Shown here piece after piece: positions 1-64,000 of a DNA stretch of 64,000 nucleotides. Position numbers and translations under genes: made by a program. The notes under the pieces are model-generated. The model was not told the origin of the DNA, searched no databases, and was given only the letters and a program-made list of their open reading frames with translations. This DNA is from Thermodesulfobacteriota bacterium (GTDB taxonomy: Bacteria > Desulfobacterota_D > UBA1144 > Nemesobacterales > CSP1-2). The stretch lies in assembly GCA_035559815.1 (NCBI GenBank), contig DATMAT010000029.1, positions 2,485-66,484 of the forward strand, written 5' to 3'. Every line of letters starts with the position of its first letter. Positions within the stretch are counted from its first letter, which is position 1.

Positions 1-68
1 CGTCCTAGAGCTTAAAAGATAATTTAAGCACGAATCTGCGAAAACTATCTGTTTTCTAGGAGAGACTA

Positions 69-314
69 ATGCCTATTTGTCCTAGGTGTCAAACATTAAT
101 GATTTGTAGCAAGAGAATTTCTGTGGCAGGGATAGAAAACAAAGAGATTGAATGGATCTGTGAATTAGACAAAATCCAAGCAGAAATAAGGCATCCTGTC
201 CAGTATGTTTACATTGTAATAGGTGATGAGGAAGAGATAGAGGGTAAAAGAAAAAGAGTCATTGAAAAGCAAATAAGCGGGGCAGAACTCTTTGTATACT
301 ATGAATTTCTTTAG
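69..314 (+). CDS. small hypothetical protein (81 aa)
   Basis: ORF only; no recognisable motif. Confidence 0.2.
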   Translation: MPICPRCQTLMICSKRISVAGIENKEIEWICELDKIQAEIRHPVQYVYIVIGDEEEIEGKRKRVIEKQISGAELFVYYEFL

Positions 315-339
315 AAGCTAAATTTATTCTCCATATGAA

Positions 340-1005
340 ATGGAGGAAATCATGGATAAGAAAGTAAGCCTACCATTAGATGATGAGCGTTATCAACCCT
401 TGAAAGACCAACTTAAAAATATTCTTCGTAGAGACCCAGAGCTCTCGGATGCAAACTTGCTACGAGAGTTTCTGGAAAACTACAAGGATTACTTTGGCAC
501 GAGAACCTCTTCGGAAATCTCAACTGGGACAGATAATATGATTCGAAGAACCGTTCACTATATGGTGCTGAGTGCAACGGATCTGCAAAGCTTTCACATT
601 ACCAGCCGCAACTGGTTAAAAGAGCAAGGGTATCAACTTCCGCCCTGGGATACCGAATCAAGCCACAAACTGCATCGTGTGATTGAATATAAAGGGCATG
701 CAGCAGCTGTAGTAGAATGGGAGCCGGAAAAAAACATCACTTTAGACCCAAGTCTTGAAGAAAGTGAAAAGAATTGGGTGCTTGCTATGGCAATCGGTGC
801 GGGTGAAAAACCGGAATGGAGTGTAGAAGAACTACGCAGGTTTGCCGCTTATCTCACGATGGGCAGAGCAGAATTCTCGAATGATAGAGAATTGGGTGAT
901 CAAGAAATCGCCGAAAAATACGAAGTGCCGATTGAAGAGGTAGCGTACCGCCGTGGGCTGCCTGATGAGATTGGTACCACCGAGGGGGAGAAAAATAAAC
1001 ATTAA
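340..1005 (+). CDS. hypothetical protein (221 aa)
   Basis: long ORF with acidic C-terminus; no recognised family. Confidence 0.4.
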   Translation: MEEIMDKKVSLPLDDERYQPLKDQLKNILRRDPELSDANLLREFLENYKDYFGTRTSSEISTGTDNMIRRTVHYMVLSATDLQSFHITSRNWLKEQGYQLPPWDTESSHKLHRVIEYKGHAAAVVEWEPEKNITLDPSLEESEKNWVLAMAIGAGEKPEWSVEELRRFAAYLTMGRAEFSNDRELGDQEIAEKYEVPIEEVAYRRGLPDEIGTTEGEKNKH

Positions 1006-29418: not shown

Positions 29419-30009
29419 ATGTTTAAGTCAAGACTAGTTAGTAAGAAGGGCGAAAAGGGTTTTACCCTGATCGAGCTGTTGGTGGTCGCGGCCATCATCG
29501 GCATATTGCTTGCGATCGCTATTCCTAACCTTATCAAGGCTAGGATGTCCGCGAACGAGGCGAACGCGAGAAAAGCCATGCAAACTTTAAGGGATGCAGA
29601 AGGTGAGTACTTCGAGCAGGACCTGGATAATAATGGAACTAGGGACTACATCGATGAAATAGGTAACCTTACTGGTACTACGCCTTCTTTACGTGACCCT
29701 GAAGGCACTGCTGATGAGCAAGATGCGCTTGTAGACAGTAGTTTTGAGGGGGCAAGCGATACTGGGGGTGCTGATTGTAGTGATCCAAAGGCGGGATATT
29801 GCATTAGATGGGATGCTGCTGTCGTTGCCAATGCAGCTGGCCTTTTTGACGATTTTGGTTGGCAGTCAACTATGACTAGCTTTAACAAGGTTGGAAGAAG
29901 AGACTACGCAGTATACGGGGATGGAGTTATAAGATGTGACGTCAGCACATCAGGAGTCGGCCAACCTGGAACATTTGAAGTTGATCGGACTGACCCTGGT
30001 TGTGATTAA
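29419..30009 (+). CDS. type IV pilin-like protein (prepilin N-terminal methylation domain)
   Basis: KGFTLIELLVVAAIIGILLAIAIPNL class III signal; C-terminal Cys pair; TDPGCD end. Confidence 0.7.
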   Translation: MFKSRLVSKKGEKGFTLIELLVVAAIIGILLAIAIPNLIKARMSANEANARKAMQTLRDAEGEYFEQDLDNNGTRDYIDEIGNLTGTTPSLRDPEGTADEQDALVDSSFEGASDTGGADCSDPKAGYCIRWDAAVVANAAGLFDDFGWQSTMTSFNKVGRRDYAVYGDGVIRCDVSTSGVGQPGTFEVDRTDPGCD

Positions 30010-30531: not shown

Positions 30532-31125
30532 ATGTTTAATTTAGGTATAAATACTGAAAAAGGTTTCACCCTTATTGAACTCTTGGTAGTAGCAGCCATC
30601 ATCGGAATATTACTTGGTATAGCGATTCCAAACCTTATTAAAGCACGTCTTTCGGCTAATGAGTCTAATGCCAGAAAAGCCCTTCAGACTATTAGAGATG
30701 CAGAATATGAATATTCCGAACAAGACTTAGATGATAATGGCGCAAGAGATTATACTAACTTTATAGGTTCGTTGGGTGCGTCAGGTACTTTGCGTGATCC
30801 TTCCGGTACCAACGACGAACAAAATGCGCTTCTGGATATCACTTTTGAAGGTGCAGTAGTGAATGACGGAAATGCAGCGGCTACCGCCAATTGCACTGAC
30901 CCAAAGGCAGGATATTGCATTGGATGGAGTGGAGATGTTAACACCGATTCTACTACGCTAGCAGGTGATTTTGGTTGGGAGGCTTCTATGACAGGTGCTG
31001 GTAAGACCGGAAGAAAAGATTTTTCTGTTTTTGCCGACAAGGTTATCAAATGTATTGCTACTACCCAATCTAGTGGCAGCGCAGGACAATTTGAATCATC
31101 CCGTACCGACCCTGATTGTGATTGA
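30532..31125 (+). CDS. type IV pilin-like protein, paralogue of 29419-30009
   Basis: same N-terminal prepilin domain, conserved DPKAGYCI(R/G)W and TDPDCD C-terminus. Confidence 0.7.
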   Translation: MFNLGINTEKGFTLIELLVVAAIIGILLGIAIPNLIKARLSANESNARKALQTIRDAEYEYSEQDLDDNGARDYTNFIGSLGASGTLRDPSGTNDEQNALLDITFEGAVVNDGNAAATANCTDPKAGYCIGWSGDVNTDSTTLAGDFGWEASMTGAGKTGRKDFSVFADKVIKCIATTQSSGSAGQFESSRTDPDCD

Positions 31126-58173: not shown

Positions 58174-58626
58174 ATGAAAAAAAGCGTAGTTTCAATGTGT
58201 ATGGTTATAAGTCTGGTGGTTTCTACAATGGGCTCATCTGCTTTTTTATCTTCCTGTGCCACCAGCCAGCGTACCTATGAGGGTGCCGGGGTAGGCGCTG
58301 CGCTCGGCTCCGTGGCCGGGCTTTTGATCGATGACGACAACAGATGGCGGGGCGCTGTAATCGGTGGTTTGATCGGCGCTGCTGTTGGCGGTACGGTCAC
58401 CGAGATATCCCAAAGGGCGGCGCGCGAGGCTGCATATGAAGGACGGCCGGTTGCTTATCAGAGTACAGATGGGTTCCAGAGGGTGGAAGCTACACCGGTA
58501 GGTTATGATGCGAGTACCAAGTGTCATAAAGTTCGGGAGAGGGTGTGGCAGGATGGCCAGCTAGTAAAGGATGAAGTAAGAGAGGTATGTGAGTCCGACA
58601 GGGTAGAGCCGGGATATAATTATTAG
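58174..58626 (+). CDS. glycine-zipper (SlyB / 17-kDa antigen-like) lipoprotein
   Basis: lipobox LSSC; GAGVGAALGSVAGLLI...GAVIGGLIGAAVGG. Confidence 0.5.
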   Translation: MKKSVVSMCMVISLVVSTMGSSAFLSSCATSQRTYEGAGVGAALGSVAGLLIDDDNRWRGAVIGGLIGAAVGGTVTEISQRAAREAAYEGRPVAYQSTDGFQRVEATPVGYDASTKCHKVRERVWQDGQLVKDEVREVCESDRVEPGYNY

Positions 58627-58703
58627 TGATTATTTAGCCACGGAGAACATAGAGACTTCGCTAAGATCAGTCGAGCATTCAAGAATTTTTCTTTGAGCTA
58701 TTA

Positions 58704-58744
58704 AAGCCAGAGAGATTAAACACATCTTTCTGGCTTTTTATTTG
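58704..58744 (+). terminator. intrinsic terminator
   Basis: aaagccagaga...tctttctggc then tttttatttg. Confidence 0.6.
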
Positions 58745-58989
58745 CCCCGTGAGATAAGTTTTACTATCCAACGGGTTGAGATACGCAGTGGTATTAACCC
58801 ACGAAACGAGGGTCTCTCAGGTCTCACGGAATTATCTCTTGGGGTTAATACTGCTTTCCAAAAAATTAGAAACCAGTGGTTCACACTCGCAAACAAGGAC
58901 TTTAGATAGGTAAAAAGTCTTTTTAAAATCAGGTTTACTTTTCTATGTTTGTTATGCAAGTGCTGTTCCAACCCTATTCGTTGAAATTG

Positions 58990-59165
58990 CCTTTTTAACC
59001 CTGCTCACCCTTCGTCTCCGCTCAGGGTGAAGGGCATGGTATTGCTTGGAGTTTTAGACCTGCCTTCATGGTGAGCGGAGTCGAACCATGAGTAGTTCGA
59101 TTGCGCTCAAAGCCTGTCCTGAGGAATAAACTCAGTCGAACCATGGACCCTTCTAAGCATAATCT
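58990..59165. repeat. family A repeat cluster
   Basis: near-copy of 57720-57870. Confidence 0.7.
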
Positions 59166-59298
59166 CGTTTTTTCAATGGATTGCTTCGTCGCTTTGCTCC
59201 TCGCAATGACACCCAGGAAATGGCGACTCTTCTCTCTGACTCCACGCGAAGCAATCTTTTAATTTCGGACAAGGTTGACCGCTACAAATGATGGCTTA

Positions 59299-59326
59299 GT
59301 AGGGGCACGCTGCAGCGTGCCCCTAC
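59299..59326. repeat. REP (GTAG-type palindrome)
   Basis: gtaggggcacgctgcagcgtgcccctac. Confidence 0.65.
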
Positions 59327-59561
59327 CATAGTAAAAAGACGTCTGAAGAAAAAAACTAAGTATTATCCCAACCCGTGAAATAAATTTTACTATCTAACTA
59401 ACTCGCCATACTCCAAAGCTAGTGCTGTTTTATAACGATTTGCACGTAAATATGGAACCAACATTCGTATATGTAAGACGTGAGAGTATGTGTTGATCCC
59501 CAATTAGAAAGATAATAAAAGATAATAGAGGTTAAAACTGTCCCAAATAGAGGGATTGATT

Positions 59562-59830
59562 GCAAGAGTTCGTCTGATAGTAATCAAAGGGCTCCAATGA
59601 CGGATAAATAAGAGGAAGCAAACCCCTCTCTTTAATTCCCCCCCTTAGTAAGGGGGGAAATGCAAGGGGGTTAGAAGGGCTATTTGAACGAATAGGATCA
59701 GTACAGCGCTTGCATAGGAAACATCAAAGAGAGTAACCTGATTTTAAGAAGCCGTTTTATCCGTCGAAGAGCCTTGTTTTATAAAGGGTGAATCTGTTGG
59801 TTTTTAATTATTTTTGATAGCAGTGTATAC
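59562..59830. repeat. copy 2 of duplicated conserved noncoding element, followed by hicB 3' fragment (59809-59865)
   Basis: aligns to 9546-9627 and 9938-10060; tacactgctatcaaaaataa corresponds to hicB end gatcactgctgtccaaaataa. Confidence 0.6.
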
Positions 59831-59874
59831 AGGGTATCCTTTGAGGCAATGCCTAATGATCGTATAGATCGTTT

Positions 59875-59902
59875 GGAGGGGTTCAAAATTTTGAACCCCT
59901 CC
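59875..59902. repeat. REP-like perfect palindrome
   Basis: ggaggggttcaaaattttgaacccctcc. Confidence 0.55.
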
Positions 59903-60032
59903 AAAAGCAAAATACATTCAGCACATAGCAAAGTTATGGGCTCTATTATTCAGTGCAGACAAATCTGCCGCTCAGGCTGTTCTGCGTGTTTTTACACAAC
60001 AAACAGATTTTTTATATTTTAATGAAAAGCTC

Positions 60033-60061
60033 TTGACAAGGTATGTGATTTGTGATGTAAT
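60033..60061 (+). promoter_or_regulatory. sigma70-like promoter (TTGACA-17-TGTAAT)
   Basis: ttgaca aggtatgtgatttgtga tgtaat. Confidence 0.45.
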
Positions 60062-60136
60062 TGCTTTAATTTTAAAGGAGGATAGAAAGAGTGATGTCAT
60101 CTGTTCAAGCCTGTTTTGGATCCACAAAGAAAGGGC

Positions 60137-60165
60137 TTGACAATCAATTTTTTCTGTGTTGTAAT
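60137..60165 (+). promoter_or_regulatory. second sigma70-like promoter (TTGACA-17-TGTAAT)
   Basis: ttgaca atcaattttttctgtgt tgtaat. Confidence 0.45.
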
Positions 60166-60312
60166 TCAAAGCATCCAAAAGTCTGGAGGAGGCTTTTTTA
60201 AAAATCTTAAGGAGGATGAAAGCCATCTCAAAAAATCAATTCCCGAATCCAACCGTTTTTTCCCATAATCAATACCTGAAGCTTAATAAAACAACGAAAA
60301 AGGAGGGTGTAA

Positions 60313-61329
60313 ATGTTTAAGGAATTATTTGGTGAAAAAAATCAAAAAAGGAGGATAGCTTCTATGCTAGAGAAGAATTTTAGCAGGATAAAGTATCTTT
60401 TGTTGTTAGCATTGCTTTTGATGGTGCCGGCCAAATCTTGGGCCGGAGCACCGGGGCTTTTCGACACGGACGGTCTTAATGCTCAGATGGTCGGTTTCTG
60501 GGACCTAAGAAACCGGAACTCATTCGCGCAGGTAACAAACACCAGCGCGCTACCGATAACCGTACACGTCCAGATATTCAATGCGGCATCAGGTTGTTTG
60601 GAGGTTGACTTTTATGACACCTACACCGGGAATGATACCCACGTATATGACCTAAGGGGCATAGTCAGGAATGACGGCGGGCCGTTAAGCATAGTGTTAC
60701 CGGATGGCGGTTTTGGCATAATCGTGGTAACGAATGTGGCTGGGGTGTTCGGTCCGGCACTTGGGAATTTTATCGAGGACTACGTACTGACCGGGAATTT
60801 CCGGGTAGTGGACTTTGCCGGATACGAGTACAGGTCAAATTTTGACGGGGTTCCCAATATTTTAACAGGCCTGGCAGATGATCTCACGTTTAACTTTAAC
60901 AACGTTAACGGGAATAGCCTCTCGGACGTGGTTGGCATAGTGCTGGATGATACCGGGCCTGGATTTTTCGAGGTGATTGCCGCAGGCACCTTTATCACAT
61001 TCGACGTATTCCTTTTTGACCAGTTTGAGAACCCGATTTCCTGCGACCTCTTTACATTTGCCTGTACGGCAAGCTCATTGGACGTCGGTATAAATGGCGC
61101 GCTTCCTAACAGCAGGGGGGCGGGAAGCCTTTGCCCGGCGAATGTTGATACCGTGGGGCACGTAAGGTTGTTTGGCGTAGCCGCGGCTGGCGACTATTTC
61201 ACCGGATTTGTCGGACTAAATAACGGGGACGGAACCGGCAGCATGGACACATGGTGGGGTCCTTTACCTTCCAATGGTGTCGCCGCTCTTGACAGCTTGG
61301 GCCAGGGGGGCTTAAACCTAGGAAACTAA
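60313..61329 (+). CDS. secreted protein, paralogue family with 61385-62812 (signal peptide likely from Met at 60364)
   Basis: shared N-domain (QVTNT...CLEV.F.DT....DTHVYD). Confidence 0.5.
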   Translation: MFKELFGEKNQKRRIASMLEKNFSRIKYLLLLALLLMVPAKSWAGAPGLFDTDGLNAQMVGFWDLRNRNSFAQVTNTSALPITVHVQIFNAASGCLEVDFYDTYTGNDTHVYDLRGIVRNDGGPLSIVLPDGGFGIIVVTNVAGVFGPALGNFIEDYVLTGNFRVVDFAGYEYRSNFDGVPNILTGLADDLTFNFNNVNGNSLSDVVGIVLDDTGPGFFEVIAAGTFITFDVFLFDQFENPISCDLFTFACTASSLDVGINGALPNSRGAGSLCPANVDTVGHVRLFGVAAAGDYFTGFVGLNNGDGTGSMDTWWGPLPSNGVAALDSLGQGGLNLGN

Positions 61330-61384
61330 ATATGATGATTAAACGGATTGAACATAATAAAATTAGAATAAAGGAGGAGAAATC

Positions 61385-62812
61385 ATGTTAAAGAGGTTGA
61401 AGATAATAAACTTGATGGTGATGGCAAGTTTAATGCTTGTTCTCACCTTTAGCGCCTTCGACAAGGCCAAAGCGCAGGGGCTTACAGCCTGCCCCGGGGT
61501 GCCTTTTGATACCGGCTGGTTTCAATTGAACGTTGATTTTCCAGGGGACGACGTTAAGGTCGGTCTTCTGGGGCAAGCAGAGGCAGCCGGCGCCGGGTTC
61601 ATAGGGGGTATAGACTGGTTATACACCGACAGCTCGCTTTTCAACACCCAGCTAAGCGGCTCCCAGTTAGTAAGCTGGTGGACCCAGGCCCCTGGAAGAA
61701 ACACATCCATACAGGTTACAAACACCGACCCGTTCGATGCGGTCAATATTCACGTGGTGATCATAGGCTCGGACTGTTTAGAGGTAAGGGACTTCTGTGA
61801 TACCTTGACGCCGTTAGATACGCACGTGTACGACTTCGGCAACCTGATAAACAACCTGGGCCAGGACATACCTGATGCCAATATCCAGGGTGAGGAGGGG
61901 TTTGTGGTGATATCCGCGGTTGATTCTTGCCCTAATCCGAATGGCGCCATATCATTTAACGCTCTTGAGGGTCAGTTAAGCGTGATAGACAGTAATCTGG
62001 ATACAGATTACGGGACAAACCTATGGACGAGGCTGGCTGTCACGTTTACTAATGGGGCCTCTGTAGCAGACAACGGGACAACACTAGACGGGGTAAATGC
62101 TGGCTATTTAGGGCCGGATGTGGACCCGATATTTGCAACCGACCTGCTGTTCCAGAACTATGCGGTGCTTGGCGCAGGCCCGGCCGGTGCGGACTTGGTT
62201 CTCATAAACTATTTAGATGTTTATGGACCTCCGTACGATCCGGTACCGATATTCGAGAACTACACCCCGGGGATTTTTGACGATGCGGAGAATTTCGTAA
62301 GCTGTGGAGAGCAGTTCTCATGCGGTTTCCTGAGGTTGGGAATTGATGATGCTATCGTAAATAGCGATGATATTATTGTTGTACCTCCAACCCCAACACC
62401 TGAACCGCCTACGCCATGTTTCAGCGACGAAGATTGTGCCTTGAATGAGTTCTGCGCTGGCGGACAAGTTGGAGCATGCGATGTTTCCGGCGACCCGTGT
62501 ACATCCGATGCTGATTGCCCCGAGGGTGAGGTATGTGAGGGTGCAGTAGCGGGTACTTGCGAGCTTATACCATGTACATCCGATGCTGATTGCCCCGAAG
62601 GTACGGTATGTGATGTGGAAGGTGGTTTCTGCGTGATAGTTACACCGACACCGACACCAACACCTGATGGTGATGGCGGCGGCGGATGTGCGATAGCTGG
62701 ACCGGTCAGTGTTGGAACGGCTATGGCTAACATACTGATACCTCTGGTACCGGTAGCGTTTGCATTCGGTCTCAGCGCACTGAGAAGAAGAAATAGAAAG
62801 GACAATAAGTAA
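61385..62812 (+). CDS. secreted Cys-rich protein with Pro/Thr linkers and GlyGly/MYXO-CTERM-like C-terminal sorting signal
   Basis: signal peptide; CTSDADCPEGxVC repeats; TPTPEPPTP and TPTPTPTP linkers; C-terminal GDGGGGC-hydrophobic helix-RRRNRKDNK. Confidence 0.55.
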   Translation: MLKRLKIINLMVMASLMLVLTFSAFDKAKAQGLTACPGVPFDTGWFQLNVDFPGDDVKVGLLGQAEAAGAGFIGGIDWLYTDSSLFNTQLSGSQLVSWWTQAPGRNTSIQVTNTDPFDAVNIHVVIIGSDCLEVRDFCDTLTPLDTHVYDFGNLINNLGQDIPDANIQGEEGFVVISAVDSCPNPNGAISFNALEGQLSVIDSNLDTDYGTNLWTRLAVTFTNGASVADNGTTLDGVNAGYLGPDVDPIFATDLLFQNYAVLGAGPAGADLVLINYLDVYGPPYDPVPIFENYTPGIFDDAENFVSCGEQFSCGFLRLGIDDAIVNSDDIIVVPPTPTPEPPTPCFSDEDCALNEFCAGGQVGACDVSGDPCTSDADCPEGEVCEGAVAGTCELIPCTSDADCPEGTVCDVEGGFCVIVTPTPTPTPDGDGGGGCAIAGPVSVGTAMANILIPLVPVAFAFGLSALRRRNRKDNK

Positions 62813-62825
62813 ACAAGCGTGACCT

Positions 62826-62853
62826 GTAGGGGTTCAAAATTTCGAACCCCTAC
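62826..62853. repeat. REP (GTAG-type palindrome)
   Basis: gtaggggttcaaaatttcgaacccctac. Confidence 0.65.
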
Positions 62854-62878
62854 ATATTTTATATAAGCGTTGAAAACT

Positions 62879-62917
62879 AAAGCCAGTGAGGCTAATTTTG
62901 TCTCTCTGGCTTTTTTA
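62879..62917 (+). terminator. intrinsic terminator
   Basis: aaagccagtgag...ctctctggc then ttttttattt. Confidence 0.55.
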
Positions 62918-62989
62918 TTTGCCCTAAGAGATTATTTTATTACCGATTGGGTGAAGGTCTAATTTTATTTCACAGGGGGAATGTTAAAG

Positions 62990-63531
62990 ATGAGTTATGA
63001 TCCTGATAGACATCAGCGTAGGTCTATTAGATTAAAAGATTATGATTATTCTCAACCAGGAGCGTATTTTGTAACGATATGTACGCGTGACCGGGAATGC
63101 CTTTTGGTGATATTGTTGAAGGTCGAATGTTTTTGAATGAAATCGGTTTTCTTGTGAGTGATGAATGGATCCGTTCAGTTCAATTACGAAAAGAAATCGA
63201 ATTAGATGAGTTTGTTGTAATGCCAAATCATCTACACGGTATTGTTATAATTAGAGAATCAAATGTAGGGGCGACCGGCCGGTCGCCCCTACCTAAGGGA
63301 CCCAAGCCGAGATCAATAGGGGCGTTTATTGCAGGTTTTAAATCCTCTGCAACAAAACGAATAAATATAATGCGTGGTACCTCCGGTTTCCGTATATGGC
63401 AACGTAATTATTACGAACGCATCATCCGAAACGAAGATGAATTAAATGAGATCAGAGAGTATATCGCTAATAACCCCCTAAAATGGGAATCGGATGAAGA
63501 AAACCCGGACGTTTACCCTATGGCTTTTTAA
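62990..63531 (+). pseudogene. REP-associated tyrosine transposase (RAYT, IS200/IS605 Y1 family), frameshifted
   Basis: frame 2 from 62990: MSYDPDRHQRRSIRLKDYDYSQPGAYFVTICTRDREC; frame 1 from 63097: (M)PFGDIVEGRMFLNEIG...VVMPNHLHGIVII...WQRNYYERIIRNEDELNEIREYIANNP; one missing T in ctttt(t)gg joins them. Confidence 0.65.
63265..63292. repeat. REP-type palindrome embedded in RAYT coding sequence
   Basis: gtaggggcgaccggccggtcgcccctac encodes VGATGRSPL. Confidence 0.5.
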
Positions 63532-64000
63532 AACCGATTAATTACAATTCTCTAAAATCATGTCAATCCTGGTGCACTACGGTGAGCTTGCCCTCAAGGG
63601 TAAGAACCGGAGATTATTCGAAAACAAACTCATAGAGAATATTAAAAAGGCTACCGGTGGAAAGGTCGGAAGGTTCGAGGGGCGCCTATTAGTGGAGGAC
63701 GGAGATTCGGATTCGTTAAATAATGTTTTTGGTATATCCTGGTTCGCCCCGTCATATAGAGTTAAAAAAGACCTAAAAGAGATAAAGGAATTGATAATAG
63801 AAAAAACGGGAGAAAGAATAAATGGGGATCCCACTTTCGGGATATTTGTAAAAAGGGTGGATAAAAAGTTTCCCTATACCTCTATGGAGGTAGCGAAAGA
63901 TATAGGCGAGGAGATAGTTAGAAAATATAAGCTCGAGGTGAGTCTTAAGAATCCGGAGCTTCCTATTTATGTAGAGATCGCCGACGAGGTTTTTGTCCAT

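Follow-up and report, generated by a model that had tools for sequence, protein, structure and literature searches.

Cysteine-containing tripartite sorting signals are processed by myxosortases of the CPBP family (Haft 2023, doi 10.1101/2023.06.07.544157; Guo, Haft and Wall 2025, PMC11980579), and for TraA it has been shown experimentally that cleavage by the CPBP protease MrtX depends on the cysteine (PMC11980579). Such signals and their enzymes were recognised only between 2023 and 2025, in four lineages. Closest to the system considered here are MYXO-CTERM of Myxococcota, with the myxosortases MrtX, MrtC and MrtP and with TraA as prototype cargo, and Synerg-CTERM of Synergistota, with MrtS. 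In this study we analyse a 64,000-nucleotide stretch of contig DATMAT010000029.1 (assembly GCA_035559815.1, Thermodesulfobacteriota bacterium), hereafter the window, and in it two adjacent genes, A and B, the second of which ends in a tail of the cysteine type. We favour, and consider reasonably probable, a reading in which these two genes form an operon for envelope or surface proteins that is specific to the Dadabacteria lineage, with its primary copy in this region.

Two other systems offer partial parallels. In the haloarchaeal S-layer glycoprotein, a Thr/Pro-rich, O-glycosylated linker stands just before the C-terminal PGF-CTERM sorting signal, and in this archaeosortase A system the signal is removed and a lipid anchor takes its place; the motif (PGF), the class of the enzyme and the domain of life differ from those at the A-B locus. 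The Bacillus brevis cwp operon and the STAB-SD of B. thuringiensis cryIIIA are precedents for surface-protein operon leaders with tandem promoters and with 5' Shine-Dalgarno (SD) sequences that stabilise the mRNA. The likeness to these leaders lies in two adjacent surface-protein genes, tandem promoters, a long leader, two in-frame starts and a 5' SD box without a productive open reading frame (ORF), whereas the organisms are unrelated.

The tail of B compared with described sorting signals

B ends in DGDGGGG-C435-AIAGPVSV-GTAMANILIPLVPVAFAFGLSAL-RRRNRKDNK. Across ~137 homologous tails (89 distinct), the motif G-T-A-x-A-N-x-L-I-P-L-x-P is conserved at 85-100% and is followed by an Arg cluster, while the Cys is conserved at 100%, a figure obtained with a collecting script that would have skipped tails without Cys at that position. 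The Cys stands 9-12 positions ahead of the GT motif in all 137 collected tails, with 8-11 conserved spacer residues in between; it is single, never in the GCGC form, and the two Pro of I-P-L-V-P are 98-100% conserved. When the 48-residue tail was searched with phmmer against 1.84 billion cluster representatives, just 53 proteins proved to carry it. In 52 of these the match lies at most five residues from the protein end; in P0395, the 53rd, it is an internal match, probably a spurious one. In addition to the A/B family, the tail is found on unrelated cargo, namely two subtilases (Peptidase_S8), an SBBP/DUF7948 propeller, an FG-GAP protein, a lactonase-type propeller, a galactose-binding-like domain and DUF4394. 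Because one tail occurs on many cargos, always at the terminus and within one lineage, we take it, on this operational definition, to be a C-terminal sorting signal.

Three representative tails were scanned against the NCBIfam CTERM models at E<=10, and the tail fell below every cut-off. The best scores were those for JDVT-CTERM (NF033191; 16.1 bits vs a cut-off of 27) and PTPA-CTERM (14 vs 29), and the DP motif that JDVT-CTERM carries ahead of its Leu-rich helix is not in the tail consensus. TIGR03901, GlyGly-CTERM, PEP-CTERM and Synerg-CTERM (TIGR04564) gave no match in the same scan.

MYXO-CTERM resembles the tail in its tripartite layout of invariant Cys, helix and Arg cluster. In addition, B shares with that system the Cys-rich repeat family TIGR04201, and the candidate protease described below has its best matches in MrtP and Mrt_core. 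The differences are nonetheless several: the lineage is another; the score against TIGR03382 is 12.3 bits vs a cut-off of 15.85; the helix contains the two invariant Pro, whereas MYXO-CTERM helices are without Pro or charged residues (Haft 2023); a spacer separates Cys and GT, and the GCGC form, frequent in MYXO-CTERM (Haft 2023), does not occur; and the candidate protease is minimal, at ~202 aa, and scores under the Mrt_core cut-off. Synerg-CTERM likewise has a Gly/Ser-rich cluster that ends in a single invariant Cys and a conserved Pro in the helix, and MrtS ranks high among the models that the candidate protease matches (53-65 bits). There, however, no spacer precedes the helix, where the present tails have 8-11 conserved residues; its model is unmatched, and the phylum is another.

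By motif and model score, then, the tail lies outside every described class and is an undescribed variant of the Cys-type C-terminal sorting systems. An initial annotation of this DNA, all of whose listed features lie where it had placed them, had described a tripartite sorting-type tail distinct from PEP-CTERM, which agrees with the terminal position, the conservation and the unrelated cargo reported here. It had also called the tail GlyGly- or MYXO-CTERM-like. Its nearer kin are the Cys-containing, myxosortase-processed signals rather than those of GlyGly and rhombosortase, and no described model fits.

Variant Cys tails were also seen, in the clade of the metagenome-assembled genome (MAG) OFTM105 and in others (L048 5204-8164; L033 2518-3321, - strand; proteins P0110/P0111; L and P numbers are our handles for related loci and homologous proteins). 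They combine G-C-S-[LI] with a Pro-containing helix (LLLIP in L048, LLPII in P0110/P0111) and a basic cluster, and depart from the GTAxANxLIPLVP consensus. It seems that the sorting signal comes in lineage-specific subtypes.

Genes A and B and their family

A and B are secreted paralogues without a named family. They are 31% identical over ~250 aa (BLASTP, E=3e-12), and profile searches with their N-domains found no match in Pfam or NCBIfam, as expected from the initial annotation, to which no family name had come to mind. The same annotation had described both proteins as Cys-rich, which is right for B, with 19 Cys, and wrong for A, with 4. Two of the three Cys repeats of B have the form CTSDADCPEGxVC, and the repeats match NCBIfam TIGR04201 Myxo_Cys_RPT at 31.8 bits in two matched stretches, above the cut-off of 25; matches to Pfam Dickkopf_N and DUF7107 are barely over the gathering scores. 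The layout of both genes and of their surroundings is given in Table 1.

Table 1. Features of the A-B region. Positions are those of the window; ranges marked "residues" are amino acids of protein B.
Feature	Position	Strand	Description
Palindrome TGGAGGGGTTCAAAATTTTGAACCCCTCCA	59874..59903		30 nt, at the 5' border of the cassette; possible terminator or REP-like element
Promoter-like box P1	60033..60061	+	TTGACA, 17-nt spacer ending TGA (extended -10), TGTAAT
SD box 1 (AAGGAGG)	60075..60081	+	~7 nt from inferred P1 transcript start
Upstream ORF 1	60091..60201	+	GTG 60091/ATG 60094, 35-36 codons; overlaps P2
Promoter-like box P2	60137..60165	+	TTGACA, 17-nt spacer ending TGT, TGTAAT; starts 104 nt after P1
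SD-like boxes	60186..60215	+	GGAGGAGG at 60186-60193, AAGGAGG at 60209-60215; near inferred P2 transcript 5' end
Mini-ORF 2	60216..60320	+	34 codons; ATG directly abuts AAGGAGG
Gene A	60313-61329	+	338 aa; secreted beta-sandwich protein without membrane anchor
B SD box	61371..61377	+	7 nt ahead of B ATG
Gene B	61385-62812	+	475 aa; head, Cys repeats, linkers and sorting tail
B signal peptide	residues 1-30
B beta-sandwich head	residues ~31-331		paralogous to A
B first Pro/Thr linker	residues 332-344
B three four-Cys repeats	residues 345-365, 372-392, 397-416		345-416 overall
B second Pro/Thr linker	residues 419-427
B sorting tail	residues 428-475
C-terminal sorting domain	62666..62809	+	Gly run, Cys435, AIAGPVSV spacer, GTAMANILIPLVPVAFAFG hydrophobic segment with two invariant Pro, RRRNRKDNK
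Second palindrome copy	62825..62854	+	T-rich run after it; terminator-like site

Gene A has two in-frame starts, ATG 60313 (SD at 60300) and ATG 60364 (SD at 60348), with AAGGAGG before each. Its classical signal peptide (MLEKNFSRIKYLLLLALLLMVPAKSWA) starts at the second ATG, and cleavage is predicted after KSWA (residue 44). The resulting N-terminal extension of 16-17 residues is in frame and free of stops in all leaders, where the two ATGs lie 48-51 nt apart, so that the extension is probably translated, or both starts are in use. Between A and B there is a gap of 55 nt with no promoter-like site on the + strand and no terminator-like site, and we therefore regard the two genes as an operon, of which the downstream palindrome is the likely terminator.

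Protein A is identical to P0121, from a MAG labelled Thermodesulfobacteriota; an exact-sequence look-up of B gave no record. Every named homologue of A or B is from a MAG that carries the label Candidatus Dadabacteria, Thermodesulfobacteriota or Deltaproteobacteria. A B-like gene with the tail follows directly 3' of an A-like gene at the syntenic loci and at most of the paralogue loci of OZ244991.1, a complete 2.67-Mb genome, and in the OFTM105 clade A-like genes occur singly or in separate arrays. In OZ244991.1 the family forms tandem arrays in which A-like genes (~345 aa) alternate with B-like genes (~650 aa); the loci fetched from it (L007 and L022-L039) hold at least 15 distinct tail-bearing B paralogues over six regions, and L007 (2442979-2465045) packs 13 A/B family genes into 22 kb. 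Searches of the literature gave nothing relevant that links Dadabacteria with an S-layer or with CTERM signals.

Three proteins, from three separate sequence clusters (P0017, P0023, P0029), join an A-like protein with a Cys tail of its own, in frame and without a stop, to a B-like signal peptide (residues ~330-400). Either this joint frame encodes a polyprotein, with a helical hairpin that would be cleaved at either side, or it represents three independent gene-call artefacts. A "Rosetta-stone" fusion of A and B was considered for these 806-830 aa proteins and rejected, as they keep the internal tail and the internal signal peptide; they are a tailed A joined in frame to B and not a plain domain fusion.

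The ASRT/TM1070 beta-sandwich fold (PDB 1nc7, 2ii7) was compared with A and B and gave no sequence-level match and no Pfam match, at 8-13% identity; A and B are also three times larger, secreted, and have conserved Cys. For a role as an S-layer or major surface protein, the strong promoter-like boxes and SD boxes and the architecture of anchor and linker are indirect hints, which do not imply that a lattice is formed.

With regard to the source genomes, several of the locus-bearing MAGs (among L013, L042, L046, L047 and L033) go under the label "uncultured Spirochaetia", and one 3.3-kb contig under Hyphomicrobiales, probably through wrong labels or wrong binning. L047 has the look of a much higher G+C content and carries a 711-aa fusion-like ORF.

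Tandem promoter-like boxes and the leader

Ahead of gene A lie two promoter-like boxes of the same build, TTGACA-N14-TGn-TGTAAT, each with a perfect -35, a conserved TGn and a -10 hexamer that agrees at 5/6 positions. P1 and P2 are the only two matches to TTGACA-N17-TGTAAT in the window, against 0.25 expected. P1 is kept in L001, L003, L006, L008, L009, L013, L019, L037, L040/L043, L042, L044, L045, L046 and L049, and a distance of 103-104 nt between P1 and P2 is kept in L019, L037, L040/L043, L042, L044, L045, L046 and L049. Since this phasing is maintained while the A proteins of those tandem-box loci are only 33-40% identical to that of the window, we regard the boxes as functional elements, as the initial annotation had proposed in calling them tandem sigma70 promoters. 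Sigma70-type promoters with an extended -10 are what they most likely are, to judge by hexamers and spacing. The tandem boxes occur only at the syntenic locus, which has an S41 peptidase and a Gly-zipper gene upstream and ThiI downstream (where checked), and none of the fetched OZ244991.1 paralogue loci has them.

Some features do not favour a pair of active promoters. In TGTAAT the second position of the -10 hexamer is G where A is canonical; the generic promoter scan requires A there, and P1 and P2 are hence unlisted by it. L009, with an A protein 91% identical to that of the window, has lost P2, which is hence dispensable, and P2 was not found in L013. Taken with the fixed phasing of about ten helical turns, which would suit cooperative binding, the non-canonical hexamer and the dispensable P2 could be explained if the boxes were the operator pair of a regulator, or what remains of a 104-nt duplication. 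We consider this unlikely, given that each box has the full set of promoter elements described above, that an SD box follows within ~15-25 nt of each, and that the hexamers are conserved while the spacers vary. Two tandem promoters remain the preferred reading.

The leader as a whole is better conserved than its surroundings: between the window and L003, nucleotide identity is 72% in the leader, 63.5-64.3% in the coding regions and 52% upstream of P1. Alignments of orthologous leaders show conservation at the two promoter-like boxes and at the SD boxes. The leader, of ~280 nt, is unstructured and folds no better than shuffled sequence (z-score of the minimum free energy, -0.16). RNAalifold on eight leaders gave 0 conserved pairs, and an Rfam scan of 58600-64000 at E<=1 gave no match; on these three results a riboswitch or other structured regulatory RNA was rejected.

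A candidate sorting protease and the fate of the tail

The candidate enzyme for the tail is a CPBP protease of ~202 aa, a polytopic membrane protein found in relatives (L031:6340-6948 and four orthologues). The CPBP catalytic motifs EExxxR, FxxxH and HxxxN are present as PEEVFFRG, LLFAxGHF and FHFxANIVH in L031, L050, L051 and L053. When the five members were compared with NCBIfam, the top matches were all myxosortase models: MrtP at 75-79 bits, Mrt_core (NF040914) at 69.5-73 bits over model positions 3 to 101-104 of 108, and further MrtS, MrtC, MrtX, MrtZ and MrtJ, all under curated cut-offs. The family has 237 matches, of which every taxon-labelled one is from Dadabacteria or Thermodesulfobacteriota MAGs; among the 120 matches listed, each is ~202 aa long and assigned to PF02517.

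The gene lies downstream of the operon in relatives. In CAZPHQ010000003.1 and CAWGRW010000009.1 it has the same orientation as the syntenic B and starts 14.7 kb past the B stop. A third assembly has it on a 29,625-bp contig, and the B-like gene P0036 is on a contig likewise of 29,625 bp; in five more cases, CPBP contigs agree in size with contigs of the sorted-protein side. Between A-B and the protease, the two mapped genomes have ThiI, a GMC oxidoreductase (seen in L044), FG-GAP/ASPIC, GT2, PMT, GtrA, a second GT2 and a Mannosyl_trans2-like gene, and the third assembly has, upstream of the protease, GMC oxidoreductase, FG-GAP/ASPIC, GT2, PMT, GtrA and a second GT2. The two closest relatives of the window show the start of the same series, in the order A, B, Y1_Tnp, ThiI, Gluconate_2-dh3 in L001, and A, B, Gluconate_2-dh3, GMC oxidoreductase, FG-GAP, PMT in L003. 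The glycosylation genes form a conserved cluster (L050 2392-9538, L051 1397-8608, L053 1414-8583) of GT2, a ~440-aa unknown protein, PMT/PMT_2, GtrA and GT2, with Mannosyl_trans2 only in L051 and L053. This cluster is a candidate for O-glycosylating the PTPTP linkers of B.

By analogy with the described systems, the tail is probably cut by this myxosortase-like protease that relatives encode nearby and, extrapolating from them, we infer that the window's own genome carries the gene ~15 kb past the window end. Several points tell against the assignment. The Mrt_core score of ~72 bits compares with a curated cut-off of 100. Hydropathy and a motif scan found no CPBP, rhomboid or exosortase-like membrane protein among the ORFs of the window, which ends 1.2 kb past B, so that the synteny of the protease is extrapolated. 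At 14.7 kb the linkage is loose, and the genes on the flanks, for NAD synthase and glutamate synthase, are housekeeping genes. Protease and tail both seem widespread in the lineage, and their co-occurrence is therefore not discriminating.

The tail could instead be a plain C-terminal transmembrane anchor that is never cleaved, B being then a tail-anchored or bitopic protein, and its conservation would then come from helix packing or from a membrane partner. Scores under every curated CTERM cut-off and a window in which no enzyme was found would fit such an anchor, and the conservation of GTAxANxLIPLxP, which is above that of most sorting signals, could mean a structural role in the membrane. 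On the other hand, the classic layout of Gly/Ser cluster, invariant Cys, helix and terminal Arg cluster recurs on unrelated cargo, secreted subtilases included, and a shared terminal layout on unrelated cargo is the defining pattern of processed sorting domains; in addition, a myxosortase-like protease is conserved in the lineage, near the locus. We thus see only a small chance that the tail is an uncleaved anchor.

Less probable again is a signal of GlyGly-CTERM type, whose enzyme would be a rhombosortase or an exosortase/archaeosortase and to which the CPBP protease would be unrelated. A Gly run does stand ahead of the hydrophobic segment, as in GlyGly-CTERM, and the search for enzymes covered only part of the genome; however, neither the GlyGly-CTERM nor the PEP-CTERM model matches the tail, and among its signature residues only Cys is invariant, which is the hallmark of the classes that CPBP proteases process (Haft 2023). 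In 0.88 Mb (related loci and the window), a crude motif scan found no rhomboid-like membrane ORF, and its sole CPBP-like ORFs belong to one orthologous Mrt-like family. Processing by a myxosortase-like protease is accordingly the explanation that we retain as probable.

In the MYXO-CTERM model, the type II secretion system is the outer-membrane step. The window contains two prepilin-type (N_methyl) paralogues of 196-197 aa (29419-30009 and 30532-31125), which may be either type IV pilins or pseudopilins of type II secretion.

Shine-Dalgarno boxes and mini-ORFs in the leader

The window holds 17 copies of AAGGAGG, five of them between 60075 and 61377. At the site of box 1, an SD box, usually AAGGAGG, followed 4-13 nt later by ATG or GTG is present in 11/11 leaders examined, and where the inferred P2 transcript begins, all aligned relatives keep a box of the AAGGAG(G) type nearby; the boxes at the latter site have no productive start codon at usable spacing. 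A strong ribosome-binding sequence is thereby kept ~7-40 nt from each inferred transcript start. In our reading, which leans on the parallel with STAB-SD-type elements and the leaders of S-layer genes, these boxes would recruit ribosomes or shield the mRNA at its 5' end, and would code for no functional peptide.

The two mini-ORFs had been taken in the initial annotation for possible leader peptides or small co-secreted partners, each with a perfect ribosome-binding site. AAGGAGG does stand ahead of each, but at mini-ORF 2 it abuts the ATG and, for want of a spacer, is not usable there. At ORF 1 the start site is conserved and the peptide is not: it has 8, 22, 30, 35, 37 or 44-45 codons in the leaders, and similarity among relatives is confined to the part that overlaps P2. 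Since that overlap is read in different frames between lineages (as KGLD...CCNS in the window, L003 and L040 lineages, as KDLTT...YVVIL in L042, L045 and L049), it is the DNA that is conserved and not the peptide. In L009 the ORF 1 peptide is cut short at 22 aa and diverged, although the flanking DNA is nearly identical by eye in the alignment. Mini-ORF 2 has 34 codons in the window, 23 in L003 and ~21 in L010, with unrelated sequences, and is reduced to four codons (MELA) or lacks an ATG in L040, L042, L045 and L049. Conservation in relatives had been named beforehand as the point on which the peptides would stand or fall, and only the SD boxes and the start codon after box 1 are kept. Even with that start in 11/11 leaders, and an ORF 1 of 35 codons in L003, functional peptides are very improbable and the hypothesis is refuted on that point, because length, frame and sequence of the mini-ORFs vary among relatives.

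Proposed mechanism and significance

Expression would start from the two tandem sigma70-type promoters with extended -10, 104 nt apart, and the SD boxes of the leader would load ribosomes near the 5' end of each transcript, giving high expression or protecting the mRNA. B would be exported by Sec and retained in the inner membrane by the helix of its tail. By analogy with MYXO-CTERM and myxosortase, we propose that the invariant Cys would then be lipidated and that a myxosortase-like CPBP intramembrane protease would take off the helix with the Arg cluster, so that B would end up lipid-anchored at the cell surface. Its head would be mounted there on the three disulfide-knot-like Cys repeats and the Pro/Thr linkers, which the products of the PMT-type, GtrA and GT2 genes probably O-glycosylate, and A would probably associate with B non-covalently.

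A more far-reaching interpretation, which we put forward only tentatively and think rather doubtful, is that Dadabacteria have a C-terminal sorting system to themselves: a fifth Cys-type signal with a dedicated minimal myxosortase subfamily, a genetically coupled PMT-type O-glycosylation island, A and B of ASRT fold as the main clients and the principal surface coat, and a polyprotein in one lineage. As part of it, the signal consensus may be GGG[GS]-C-[AS]IAG-x(4-7)-GTAxANxLIPLVP...RRR, and the hairpin of tail helix and signal peptide in the polyprotein may be cut by the sorting protease and by signal peptidase.

If true, the myxosortase mechanism would be extended to an uncultivated phylum, by a distinct and sharply conserved signal that has a protease subfamily to itself, and C-terminal sorting would be tied to genes for protein O-glycosylation. 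The tail would also be a ready marker of the surface proteome of Dadabacteria, with its subtilases, propeller proteins and large paralogous family. The A/B family appears to be the main variable surface component of these bacteria, which are common in soils, oceans and sponges. The tandem promoters are conserved with unusual clarity across the lineage, and could be used to map promoter logic where there are no cultured members.

Flanking repeats and mobile elements

The palindrome core has only two copies in the window, vs 0.02 expected (repeat family D3/I3), and L001 has a homologous hairpin at the same place upstream as the first of them. Just 3' of B, at 62981-63531, is an IS200/Y1-transposase (RAYT-like) gene that is apparently frameshifted: it is split into two ORFs in different frames, 62981-63136 and 63097-63531, of which only the second matches PF01797 Y1_Tnp. 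In L001 its orthologue, of 176 aa, is intact. Direct repeats D2, D6 and D5 (58702-59330 vs 62878-63293) suggest a decayed second Y1_Tnp copy upstream of A-B, and L003 has an intact Y1_Tnp gene at that upstream position. On the basis of these repeats and of the L003 gene, the A-B cassette appears to be bracketed by Y1_Tnp copies or remnants and by the GGGGTTCAAAATTTNGAACCCC palindromes. In addition, 58891-59001 and 59668-59779 are imperfect inverted repeats, with arms of 64 nt and 45 nt that are 78% complementary, which flank ~670-800 nt without a sizeable ORF and could be a MITE-like element or a remnant of one.

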